From NCBI GenBank assembly GCA_045047115.1, contig JASFYR010000019.1:32001-96000 (forward strand): a DNA stretch of 64,000 bases, given 5' to 3'. The position numbers and the translations under genes were made by a program. The notes under the pieces are model-generated. The model had not been told where the DNA came from. It did no database searches and saw only the letters and a program-made list of their open reading frames with translations. This DNA comes from Sulfurospirillum sp. (GTDB lineage Bacteria; Campylobacterota; Campylobacteria; Campylobacterales; Sulfurospirillaceae). Positions within the stretch are counted from its first letter, which is position 1. Every line of letters starts with the position of its first letter. Shown one piece after another: positions 35,900 through 38,761 of the stretch.

Positions 35900-35942
35900 T
35901 GTAAAATTAGAATATGCGATTTTTGCATATTCTAATTTTACA
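35900..35942. terminator. 18-bp perfect inverted repeat downstream of xerH
   Basis: TGTAAAATTAGAATATGC-N7-GCATATTCTAATTTTACA. Confidence 0.6.
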
Positions 35943-35946
35943 CACT

Positions 35947-36987
35947 TTAGTAAATATCTGTTGTCTTTTTTAACTTTTCTTTATCGAAGTGGGTATAGAT
36001 TCTAGATGTATTTATATCAGCATGACCAAGTGATTCTTGCACAAGTATGAGGTCATGACTTTTTTGATAAAGCAAAGTTGCAAAAGTATGTCTTAGCATG
36101 TGAGCGCCATTTTTTTCTTTTTTAATACCGGCGCTCATCAGAATTTTTTCAACAATTCTGCTTATGTATGCCTGGGTCAGTTTTCTGCCAAATTTATTGC
36201 AAAAGAGTAGGTTGTTTTCGCAAACTCTTTTGCCTAAGTAGTTACTTAAATCATGCTCTATTATACCTTTTTTAATCATCACAACTCTTGGTTTGTTTCC
36301 TTTGCCTCTGACTTGTATGGTATAAAAATCATCTTGGGCATATATATCTTTCAAACAGATTCCCAAAGCTTCACCAACTCTAATTCCGGTGTAGAGTATA
36401 ATTTTTATGAGCAATCTGTTTCTAGAGAGAGTTTTTGGACTGAATTTATAAGCATCTATAGCTTGAATAAATTTTTTGACTTCATCTTTTTGCATATGAG
36501 AGGGCAGTTTTTCTCCACTTTTGCCACCAAGTCCTCCCCAATTTTTCAGCTCAATCAAAAAGCTGAATTTTTCATCATTTTGCTTATCTAAGAAGCCAAA
36601 AAAGCCCAAGAGTGCTATGCGATAATTTTTCTTTGTTGCATCTGAAAGTGTTGAAGTCTCAATGGCCAAAAATTCACTCAAAAACTCTTCATCTGTCTCT
36701 TTGAGAGATTTTGCTCCATAATTTGATATATAATTGAAAAGTTTTTCAAGCGGTATAAAATACATATGTATGCCGTTTATGCCTACATTTCTTATCTTTT
36801 TTACCAAATCTTTCAAATCTTTTAAATTCTCTACATGTAGAGTTAGATTTTGAAGATACAGAGCCAGTGCCTCTTTGTCGTTTACTTGACGGTTAGACAA
36901 GGTGGTGACTTTGTACTTGATAAATCGACTGATCCAGAAAAGAAGGGACTTTTCTATGGTATTTTCTATATCAATGGAGTATTTCAC
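35947..36987 (-). CDS. xerH: tyrosine recombinase XerH
   Basis: YTGIRVGE, GKGNK, HMLRHTFAT, LGHADINTSRIYTH; ~350 aa with epsilon-type N-terminus; adjacent dif-like site. Confidence 0.88.
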   Translation of the reverse strand: MKYSIDIENTIEKSLLFWISRFIKYKVTTLSNRQVNDKEALALYLQNLTLHVENLKDLKDLVKKIRNVGINGIHMYFIPLEKLFNYISNYGAKSLKETDEEFLSEFLAIETSTLSDATKKNYRIALLGFFGFLDKQNDEKFSFLIELKNWGGLGGKSGEKLPSHMQKDEVKKFIQAIDAYKFSPKTLSRNRLLIKIILYTGIRVGEALGICLKDIYAQDDFYTIQVRGKGNKPRVVMIKKGIIEHDLSNYLGKRVCENNLLFCNKFGRKLTQAYISRIVEKILMSAGIKKEKNGAHMLRHTFATLLYQKSHDLILVQESLGHADINTSRIYTHFDKEKLKKTTDIY

Positions 36988-36999
36988 AATATAACCTTT

Positions 37000-37027
37000 T
37001 AGTATTGGAAACTATAATTTCCAAACT
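37000..37027. other. difH-like chromosome dimer resolution site
   Basis: TTGGAAA-CTATAA-TTTCCAA: inverted arms around a 6-bp spacer, directly upstream of xerH. Confidence 0.8.
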
Positions 37028-37290
37028 ATTATATCATGATAACCTTTTAAAAACTTTACACAAAAAATAAATCTTTGCATAATCAATTACACGAGCAACA
37101 AAAAGACAGAAATAATAATAAAACGCGTAGTAAGAAGAATTTACGGCAAGATTACAACAAATTAGGCTTTTATAATTTCTTTAAGTAAAATTGCGCTAGC
37201 AAAATAAAAGCCCTTAAATGGGCTCCTATGGCTTAAATTATACTTAATTTAGTAAAATATGCTATAATTTCCAAAAATATAGGATGTAGC

Positions 37291-37686
37291 ATGTTATTAA
37301 CAACTAAAAGTACTTTTATGCCATACTTTGATTTTTTTCAAGTTGCAAACAAAGAGTACGAAAAGAAACCATCATTTTTAAGCAAAAAAATATTATCTAT
37401 CATTGCCAATAATTTACATAAGCAATATATTGAAATAGAAAAAATAATCATAGACTTAGATAAGTACAGTGTTGATCACTTGAATTTATTGTGTGATGAA
37501 CTTTATGACAGCCTTGATGAAATCAAGTTATTAAAATCAAAAATCAAAAATAGCAATAGAAATAATTTTGAATATGAAAATTTATACAACAATGCTGATG
37601 ATTTGCACAACTTAATTTTAACGCTTATTGAAAAAACAACATCTAAAGAAATACACGAACTTAAAAATAAAAACCATGCAGCCTAA
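37291..37686 (+). CDS. helical hypothetical protein, putative antitoxin
   Basis: 131 aa; extended -10 TGCTATAAT and AGGA RBS upstream; overlaps the downstream toxin-like gene. Confidence 0.7.
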   Translation: MLLTTKSTFMPYFDFFQVANKEYEKKPSFLSKKILSIIANNLHKQYIEIEKIIIDLDKYSVDHLNLLCDELYDSLDEIKLLKSKIKNSNRNNFEYENLYNNADDLHNLILTLIEKTTSKEIHELKNKNHAA

Positions 37687-37975
37687 ATATGAGATTATAA
37701 AAACATCAGACTACAAGAGAACCAGTAATAAATATATCAAAAGAAGAATATTAAAGATACAAGAGATAGAAACTTGTGTACAAAAACTAATAATAGACAA
37801 ACATGATCCAAAGTTAAATTTTAAGAAGATAAACTGCAAGCAAGATAAAAACCGATATTCAATAAAAATAAACAATCAAGGATATAGAGTTCTTTTAAGC
37901 ATAATTGAAAATGAAATATTTTTAAGATGTATATGTGATCACGATGAATATGACAGACGAAACAAAGATTGCTAA
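37676..37975 (+). CDS. RelE/ParE-superfamily toxin-like protein
   Basis: 99 aa, basic; YEIIKTSDYKR..DPKLNFKKI..YSIKIN..YRVLL..ICDHDEY. Confidence 0.7.
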   Translation: MQPKYEIIKTSDYKRTSNKYIKRRILKIQEIETCVQKLIIDKHDPKLNFKKINCKQDKNRYSIKINNQGYRVLLSIIENEIFLRCICDHDEYDRRNKDC

Positions 37976-38217
37976 TAAATTATTCAAGCTAAAAACGAAC
38001 CTTGCTACATCACCACAGTAATACTTATCATAGAAAAAATGAAACCATAAGAAGTAAAAATGTTCTTACTGTTATCTCAATATACTTGTCGCTAGAAATC
38101 TATTTGGCTTAGGCAAAGAGAAAATAGAATTTATGAATCACTCATCCCTTCAAATAGGAACCTTTTGCCCAAAAGCGGTACAAAACTATAATTTCCAAAC
38201 TTTATAATTATATCGAC

Positions 38218-38745
38218 TTAAAGCTTAAATGTATTTATTGGTGGTGTATTGATCTTGTGTTTTTTGGGATAGTCAAAAAATAGAATTTTACCCGTTCCCT
38301 CTTTAATTTTCTTAAAACTATCTATATCAAATTCTATACAAACGATAGAACAGGTTGGCATATTTGTTAAAATTGCACCGCTTAAAATTTCTCCGACTTC
38401 TGTAATGGTTGGGTTATGGGCTACAATAAAAACAGAGTCTATGCTCTTTTCAAGTGAGTCAAGTATATAGCGATAGGTTTGATATGAACTCTCATATAAA
38501 GAGTCTATATAGGATATTTTGGATTTCTCATAGCCTATGGTTTGTGCTATCTCTGTGGCAGTTGTCTTTGCTCTTTTGGCAGGACTTGAAATTATGAGGT
38601 CCGGCATGATAGAAAAAAATTTCAATCTTTTTGCCATAAAATCCAAGTCAGCTCTGCCTCTTTTGTTTAGTATTCTCTCGAAGTCACTTTTGCCCTCTTC
38701 TTTCCAGCTTGATTTGGCGTGTCTTATAAGGTATATTTTTTTCAT
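38218..38745 (-). CDS. sixA: SixA-like phosphohistidine phosphatase
   Basis: LIRHAKSSW..DFER.L..RG, SSPAKRA, VAHNP. Confidence 0.88.
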   Translation of the reverse strand: MKKIYLIRHAKSSWKEEGKSDFERILNKRGRADLDFMAKRLKFFSIMPDLIISSPAKRAKTTATEIAQTIGYEKSKISYIDSLYESSYQTYRYILDSLEKSIDSVFIVAHNPTITEVGEILSGAILTNMPTCSIVCIEFDIDSFKKIKEGTGKILFFDYPKKHKINTPPINTFKL

Positions 38746-38761
38746 GGTGAAATTATACACT

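Follow-up and report, generated by a model that had tools for sequence, protein, structure and literature searches.

A 1.17-kb toxin–antitoxin (TA) unit in a Sulfurospirillum sp. genome lies between an intact difH site and a second difH copy that is degenerate in its left arm only, and junctions of the same build bound five further inserts in which no recombinase gene was found. Judged from these sequences, insertion by the host recombinase XerH, in one form or another, is likely. For the resulting class of XerH-exploiting elements (IMEXs) the support is better, and the interest greater, than for the view of a preliminary description of this DNA, which proposed the 1.17-kb unit itself as a candidate minimal mobile element; its aside that the unit may be a remnant is likelier. 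The window is the whole stretch of 64,000 nucleotides that was analysed, and its relevant features are as follows.

35947..36987, minus strand: xerH, the single Xer recombinase gene of the host (346 aa; catalytic R, K, HxxR, H and Y intact)
37001..37027, plus strand: intact difH at the left junction (left arm 37001–37011, spacer 37012–37017, right arm 37018–37027); the same site adjoins xerH in congeners
37028..37037, minus strand: extended −10 box (ATGATATAAT) that points through dif into xerH
37038..37247, no strand: non-coding segment without ORF, hairpin, attC or Rfam match
37248..37277, plus strand: third dif-like site, 22/30 identical to difH (spacer 37262–37267)
37291..37686, plus strand: ORF1, helical 131-aa protein, putative antitoxin that fits no known family
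37676..37975, plus strand: ORF2, 99-aa putative toxin with a RelE/ParE fold and an ATG start, from a subfamily with conserved C54, R71, H89, Y92 and C99
37976..38174, no strand: non-coding segment with no detectable homologue or structure
38175..38201, plus strand: degenerate difH at the right junction (left arm GCGGTACAAAA, 4/11; spacer 38186–38191; right arm 10/10)
38207..38216, minus strand: −10 box in the chromosomal flank behind the degenerate copy
38218..38760, minus strand: sixA-like histidine phosphatase gene, the chromosomal right flank

The insert sits at dif, the chromosomal site of the host Xer system, and both of its flanks are dif-derived, one of them being a full (regenerated) difH. 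The xerH product matches Helicobacter pylori XerH (PDB 5jjv) with an E-value of 1.6e-96. The 19-bp sequence AAACTATAATTTCCAAACT forms an exact direct repeat at 37009–37027 and 38183–38201 with a spacing of 1174 bp, as the preliminary description had reported. These are its only two copies in the 2.14-Mb genome, with none further at up to two mismatches; at three mismatches, the sequence matches nine places genome-wide. Copy 1 (AGTATTGGAAA / CTATAA / TTTCCAAACT) lies 13 bp from xerH, on the upstream side of the gene, and agrees with the published difH consensus (tables of PMC3325230) except for GGAAA/TTTCC in place of GAAAA/TTTTC, a variant that preserves the palindrome and is common to congeners. 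In copy 2, the spacer and right arm are retained in 16 of 16 positions and the left arm in only 4 of 11, which bears out the earlier view of one intact and one degenerate copy. All seven changes fall in one contiguous left-arm block and none of them in the 19-bp core, a sharp boundary that, as a sequence pattern, is unlike random decay. The polarity of the KOPS-like motif AGNAGGG, the best of four motifs tried, flips at difH (15/3 on the left, 2/6 on the right; Fisher p 0.008). On this contig, GC skew neither switches cleanly at difH nor marks the terminus.

Ten of the 13 congeners had a close xerH match, and eight of these showed the dif region. The preliminary description had proposed a search for empty sites and for alternative cargo in relatives, and both were found. 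In G003 and G005, which are other species of the genus rather than second strains of the source species, xerH, dif and sixA follow one another with nothing between. G010 and G011 carry an insert of 9.2 kb at dif, and the alternative cargo consists of whole integrase-free prophages, a stronger case than had been guessed. Excision in silico rejoins xerH-dif to sixA, as had been predicted, and leaves the spacer 74 bp from a fixed sixA 3′ motif, compared with 68, 77 and 46 bp in the dif-sixA alleles of three relatives. Other genes without a second dif site occupy the region in G002, G008, G009 and G013. The xerH–sixA interval gains genes without dif duplication in G008 (14 kb), G002, L057, L058 and L063, so variability alone proves nothing. 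In G002 and G006, dif adjoins sixA but lies away from xerH. The G008 interval between dif and sixA (L029:5295–15827) encodes a 3510-aa two-partner-secretion-like protein and transporter fragments, with no second dif.

Full pairs of an intact and a degenerate site were found in six cases: the window (G000, 1174 bp), G010 (9214 bp), G011 (9159 bp), G029 (3787 bp), L168 (9295 bp) and G585 (11983 bp). The right arm is complete (10/10) in all six, and the spacer differs only in G010, by a single mismatch. The left arm retains 2–7 of 11 positions, a bias that comes from about five independent cases, as G010 and G011 are related and G029 was retrieved by a right-arm-only search able to find only left-degenerate copies. 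The five other inserts gave no match to eight recombinase queries (E ≤ 0.05; the positive control was recovered at 12/12 loci). In three of them, the degenerate copy lies at the distance from xerH at which dif lies in single-dif relatives (G029, 96 versus 97 bp; L168, 35 versus 35–36 bp; G585, 77 versus 69–78 bp), which indicates that the chromosomal site was split.

The inserts of G010 (L034:4622–13851), G011 (L035:4366–13540) and L168 (L168:671–9981) are double jelly-roll (DJR) prophages that encode a packaging-type ATPase and a capsid protein of 315–319 aa; an HTH replication-like gene and a holin gene are also among the prophage genes. The G010 capsid protein has a sub-threshold match to PM2 P2_C; its predicted structure, although of low confidence (pLDDT 49.5), resembles double jelly-roll capsids of the PRD1 type (Foldseek E 1e-9). 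This capsid family occurs in 4 of 301 genomes of the order, and it had no relative in the viral contigs and no match in the phage collection. Towards their right ends, the G010 and G011 elements have short repeats in non-coding DNA that could be an origin. The G585 insert (L216:2587–14585) is a 12-kb, AT-rich, phage-like element with genes for a lysozyme, a collagen-repeat protein and a 449-aa replication-like protein of no Pfam family, besides genes without an assigned function. A relative of it in a viral contig (L231) is present as two inverted copies around one intact dif, and the degenerate arm in G585 shares AGCGGT with that of the window, one base out of register. The G029 cargo comprises glycosyltransferase, radical SAM, LprI-like and lysozyme-fragment genes. 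A related prophage is present in G244, a host without XerH, where its borders are an XerCD-type dif and a second copy whose XerD arm is degenerate; because its borders are of the XerCD type, this phage group, by its sequences, uses whichever Xer system the host has. The G045 prophage starts beside the only dif-like match of its genome. In L056, G045, L221 and L230, an element adjoins the left arm of an intact dif, and no second site was seen. The viral contigs L221 and L230 are inoviruses with a Zot-like ATPase that end at an intact difH beside xerH, and L221 also encodes a secretin and Rep.

Occupancy of the site is low: same-strand pairs were present in 4 of 54 family genomes. Occupied sites were seen at none of 38 metagenome loci and at 2 of 80 xerH loci, 64 of which matched the dif pattern, with 15 of the other 16 inspected. 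Forty further family regions contained no same-strand second copy and one inverted pair. An order-wide pattern scan matched 154 of 301 genomes, and no close same-strand pair was seen among the 150 of 209 matches listed. Two inverted arrangements were set aside: the pair in G233 falls within a type I restriction specificity region, and the L157 copy is close to a second, truncated xerH in a gapped MAG. In 499 trials with AT-rich 16-mers on these loci, 12 gave a same-strand copy at no more than one mismatch. A few loose copies would therefore arise randomly, whereas the counted pairs are nearly exact and enclose coherent inserts.

The damage is in the left arm, which in H. pylori difH binds XerH most strongly, is cleaved first and is modelled as the equivalent of the XerD arm; a change at its T4 nearly abolishes recombination (passages of PMC5241119). 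The G18>C change, placed in both sites, abolished recombination in the same species (PMC3325230, in part). Copy 2 of the window has G18>C and loses T4. By analogy with the H. pylori sites from which these mutational data come, its changes would block XerH, with the proviso that the window presents a wild-type and mutant pair in the GGAAA variant. The degenerate arm is likewise the XerD arm in TLC-phi and GGI (PMC5357621), and the activator XafT raises TLC integration from ∼1e-9 to 1e-6, about 1000-fold (bioRxiv 2021.09.09.459576). The cassette has only two ORFs, both accounted for as the TA pair, and so appears to have no spare gene for an XafT-like activator, which argues against independent mobility.

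In the lineage of the host, the probable −10 box of xerH lies across dif: of 17 flanks examined in relatives, 12 have a TATAAT-type −10 no more than 5 bp from the right arm. With this layout, an insertion at dif would separate xerH from its own promoter. The first 10 bp of the insert supply ATGATATAAT on the minus strand, likely an xerH promoter element, and the old −10 box that persists behind copy 2 probably served xerH before the insertion. The element carried on the left end had been missed in the preliminary description. G002 and L058 have exactly these 10 bp in their chromosomal dif flank. Beyond ∼12 bp the likeness to chromosomal flanks is lost, so the match may reflect either convergence under selection or a chromosomal origin. 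On the other side of xerH, between its stop codon and an aldehyde:ferredoxin oxidoreductase gene, the window contains a perfect 18-bp inverted repeat with a 7-nt loop (35900–35942) that may be a terminator or an operator.

The interior of the insert has a GC content of 26%, compared with 35% for the genome, and its two ORFs (131 and 99 aa) overlap by 11 nt. None of eight tyrosine and serine recombinase queries (E ≤ 0.05) matched the insert, in agreement with the earlier reading of two overlapping ORFs and no integrase, and no replication, transfer, oriT or Xer-activator gene was recognised in it. The two ORFs are a putative type II TA pair composed of a RelE-fold protein, presumed to act as a toxin, and a helical antitoxin; the RelE/ParE fold was found in the product of the downstream gene, and the gene forms a conserved bicistron with an upstream partner. 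Among structure clusters, the predicted ORF2 structure reaches a TM-score of 0.90 with one that is unnamed and mostly from Campylobacterota, and of 0.80 with a RelE/StbE cluster. Its match to RelE3 (3bpq) has an E-value of 0.006, and NCBI annotates one homologue as RelE/ParE. Neither ORF scored above the cut-offs of Pfam, NCBIfam, PHROGs or PADLOC. A profile search retrieved 46 representatives of the ORF2 family, compared with one relative in a word-based search, which returned none for ORF1. C54 is invariant in the family and R71, H89, Y92 and C99 are near-invariant; C54 and the C-terminal C99 possibly form a disulfide, and one family has up to five matches per genome. The profile matches 33 of 401 genomes of the phylum, and the weaker matches are probably other RelE types.

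At all 11 other strong loci at which a toxin ORF was called (by an ATG-only caller), an ORF of 109–143 aa lies upstream, and at 3 of the 11 it is a clear homologue of ORF1. ORF1 belongs to no recognised family and has no recognised DNA-binding domain. The two proteins are predicted to bind each other: the model of their complex scored 0.84 compared with 0.00 for the best control, its runs share at least 97% of contacts, and the partner pLDDT is at least 81. Among reference pairs, 116 of 157 with solved structures attained the score mark, as against 2 of 215 that were mismatched. The preliminary assignment of a helical protein and a RelE-like toxin thus agrees with the fold and the conserved gene pair, with binding as a prediction. 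In its antitoxin-first, overlapping two-gene operon and its RelE fold, the pair resembles RelE/ParE type II TA systems, from which it differs in falling below all Pfam and NCBIfam cut-offs, in its conserved cysteine pair and in the helical antitoxin-type partner without a recognised DNA-binding domain or family.

The toxin subfamily was found in none of the 13 congeners; of 60 other genomes of the family, one has it, at a locus away from dif. Because the subfamily is absent from the 13 congeners and the unit has a GC content of 26%, the TA unit is, on its sequence features, a foreign acquisition. No dif-like site was found in the flanks (1.5–5 kb) of 15 other toxin loci or at the toxin locus of G043, so that none of these places a member of the subfamily inside a dif element, and the viral contigs yielded no relative of the toxin.

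The account towards which we lean, with some reserve, is that a circle with a one-armed attP was inserted at difH by XerH and that the TA pair is stranded cargo, either a remnant or a one-off capture. A circular DNA whose dif-like attachment site had a perfect spacer and right arm but a degenerate left arm would have entered difH through the host XerH and split the site, leaving an intact difH beside xerH that keeps dimer resolution and a crippled copy beside sixA from which excision would be rare. The parent would have been a larger XerH-exploiting element, later trimmed by deletion, or a DNA captured once. What is left of the cargo would be a type II TA operon with a toxin of a Campylobacterota RelE-fold subfamily and a helical antitoxin, held in place by addiction and by a left arm that no longer functions. 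In the variable loci of Vibrio tailless and filamentous prophages, no predicted defence cargo is commoner than TA pairs (parts of PMC11630473). A search for the parent element found none: the non-coding ends of the insert match none of the six other difH/dif elements above shuffles, and against 251 genomes they gave nothing beyond ∼50 bp and only short AT-rich matches. Descent from the G010/G011 prophage specifically was rejected, as the ends share neither DNA nor translated similarity with it. The identity of the first 10 bp with the G002/L058 dif flank speaks against stranded phage cargo in that it could mean a chromosomal origin.

The mobile minimal element of the preliminary description appears unlikely. 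XerH would excise a 1174-bp circle, which would spread by transformation or with a helper phage or plasmid supplying the activator, like a pdif module or a satellite; the predicted circle junction, if the unit were excised, would read ...GGTACAAAA-CTATAA-TTTCCAAACT-ATTATATC... The clean ends, the replacement −10 box brought for xerH and the helpers at the same site within the genus (G010, G011) suit such a cassette, as do Campylobacterota plasmids with difH-like sites near TA genes, e.g. between dinJ-yafQ and higA in NZ_CP059996.1, and the inverted sites that bracket a DUF4160/DUF2442 pair in G036 (L262). However, no copy lies at dif in 401 phylum genomes, among the loci examined, and no second copy of the element was found in the genomes, metagenome loci and viral contigs searched. 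The rarity of the toxin subfamily in the genus and family, its one family occurrence away from dif and the lack of a relative among viral contigs also count against it. With no recognised replication, transfer, oriT or activator gene and with blocking changes at the right junction, the 1.17-kb unit would lack independent mobility.

Quite unlikely is an origin without XerH, by which a TA fragment together with its own chromosomal dif arrived by homologous or illegitimate recombination, or through an integrase since lost, and the redundant dif then decayed, excision of the TA pair being lethal. The interval does vary without dif duplication, possible donors exist in G002 and G006 with their dif by sixA and away from xerH, both flanks resemble xerH-promoter flanks, and TA homologues sit at many unrelated intergenic sites. 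Against it stand the confinement of 7/7 changes to the left-arm block with 0/19 in the core, and the same sharp boundary around five unrelated inserts. Equally improbable is the boldest extension of the XerH readings, in which difH is a general Campylobacterota landing pad for DJR phages, inoviruses, microviruses, small elements and tiny cassettes, the window unit is the smallest mobile member, riding helpers and replacing the xerH promoter, and XerH controls the toxin operon through the third site in place of an antitoxin DNA-binding domain.

The third dif-like site (37248–37277), absent from the preliminary description, bears on a further reading. The 14-mer CTATAATTTCCAAA occurs three times in the genome, always inside the 1.2-kb insert region of the window, and among 701 CTATAAT sites genome-wide, the only three that continue as TTCCAAA are at this locus. 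At the third site TTTAGTA is also in exact register, its identity to difH is among the top four genome-wide, and the extended −10 of the TA operon (TGCTATAAT) is formed by its spacer. A 250-bp non-coding unit (37012–37261) and a 924-bp TA unit (37262–38185) could have been inserted successively, with the third site as their junction and now the TA promoter, and tandem IMEX arrays are common in Vibrio (sections of PMC12715192). We consider this very unlikely, as TATGCTATAAT is native to four homologous TA promoters, the same 11-mer occurs 16 times in the window genome and the test was post hoc. Because these promoters share TATGCTATAAT, the left half of the third site may be the operon's own promoter, and the site may be a promoter first and a dif mimic second.

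A chance repeat or an assembly artefact is extremely improbable: although AT-rich 16-mers do find loose copies at the rate given above, the 19-mer pair is exact, unique in the genome and inside a 106-kb contig with a single-copy interior, the empty-site spacing is correct and other genomes show the same anatomy.

Several other identities were set aside for the unit. An integron cassette was rejected for lack of an attC box pair (RYYYAAC...GTTRRRY), with fold z-scores of −0.2 to 1.0, and a CTX-like folded ssDNA att site for lack of a hairpin signal. The one Rfam match (E 0.16; 28.5 bits against a cut-off of 80) was taken as chance, and an RNA gene was dismissed. The unit is chromosomal with direct repeats, not plasmid-borne with inverse sites, and is therefore no pdif module. 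A promoter/terminator scan gave hits at chance level (9 compared with 9.4) and missed the extended −10 boxes.

The window has its nearest counterparts among elements of other Xer systems. TLC-phi-type IMEXs and GGI likewise combine a canonical dif with a copy that has an intact centre, an intact XerC arm and a degenerate XerD arm (parts of PMC5357621 and bioRxiv 2021.09.09.459576), to which the XerD-like left arm of difH is the parallel. The window differs from them in its single recombinase XerH, its size of 1.17 kb and its apparent lack of replication, transfer and XafT-like genes. LME-1 of Legionella pneumophila (XerL) also resides in a single-recombinase host between a wild-type and a modified dif, which recombine at a low level (passages of PMC9765430). 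Its recombinase and site are different, and the window unit consists of two genes. LME-1 is a large phage-like element.

Vibrio dif-type DJR prophages are integrase-free and have full or one-armed dif-like att sites (parts of PMC12715192). Together with inoviruses, in which as in these prophages TA cargo is common (PMC11630473, in part), they are the closest match to the G010, G011 and L168 prophages. Their hosts use XerCD. The window unit has no phage genes. The word "Campylobacter" does not occur in PMC12715192 or PMC11630473. Acinetobacter pdif/dif modules resemble the window in their short cargo, often a TA pair, between dif-like sites (portions of PMC12907356); they use XerCD, whereas the window has direct repeats at a chromosomal site, and L262 is a closer analogue of them than the window unit. 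Such modules are found mostly on plasmids, with sites that are typically inverted.

DJR prophages have been reported in Sulfurimonas in a text that contains neither "Xer" nor "dif site" (PMC11531552). No XerH-exploiting element is described in the literature searched as full text, where att tables in supplements may hold a mention, or in the searched passages of PMC2731167, PMC5495459, PMC4623255, PMC7062461 and PMC8138268. The earlier suggestion of an undescribed addiction cassette of a single-recombinase Xer system thus stands for XerH/difH but not for single-recombinase IMEXs as such, which are known from LME-1/XerL (PMC9765430, in part). Elements of this kind have been described for XerCD, and for XerL as a single recombinase; the XerH/difH case appears to be undescribed.

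XerH/difH is the Xer system with crystal structures of synaptic complexes and with no mobile element described in the literature searched. The junctions represent attP sequences from nature in which the damage almost always lies in the arm cleaved first, and the set would allow a test of how one recombinase acting on both arms is steered into one-way integration, and of an XafT-like activator of XerH. They also mark the exact borders of overlooked tailless prophages in Campylobacterota. The window cassette itself, probably stranded cargo, matters less; it adds an uncharacterised family of helical antitoxins.

Sites resembling difH were also seen on phages and plasmids. The tailed-phage-like contigs L220, L229 and L062 carry a complete difH of the genus variant between packaging and replication modules with no xerH nearby, and L059, L065 and L080 share the same flank. 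A 4.8-kb Microviridae genome (PQ006368.1; L289:3466–3493) has the difH-like site GGTCTTGAAAA CTATAA TTTTCAAACT and is on that basis a candidate XerH-integrating microvirus. In G036 (L262:1–820), a DUF4160/DUF2442-RHH TA pair lies between two inverted difH-like sites, by transposase and resolvase genes, an arrangement suggestive of a pdif-module analogue for XerH. Single difH-like sites are found on Sulfurospirillum and Campylobacter plasmids, often near TA genes (NZ_CP059996.1 near 9170; L286:8010; L287:11698; L288:6008), and those on Campylobacter plasmids are symmetric, without the extra base of the left arm. A plasmid search with the genus dif variant returned no Campylobacterota plasmid. 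An integrase that appears from its sequence to be of the integron type and is highly conserved is encoded in G000:C2 near 59000 (L024) and in several congeners. Several Arcobacteraceae have two xerH paralogues (L175/L210, L190/L209, L163/L181), some with their own dif variant, and partial second copies of xerH are present in L045 and L157.
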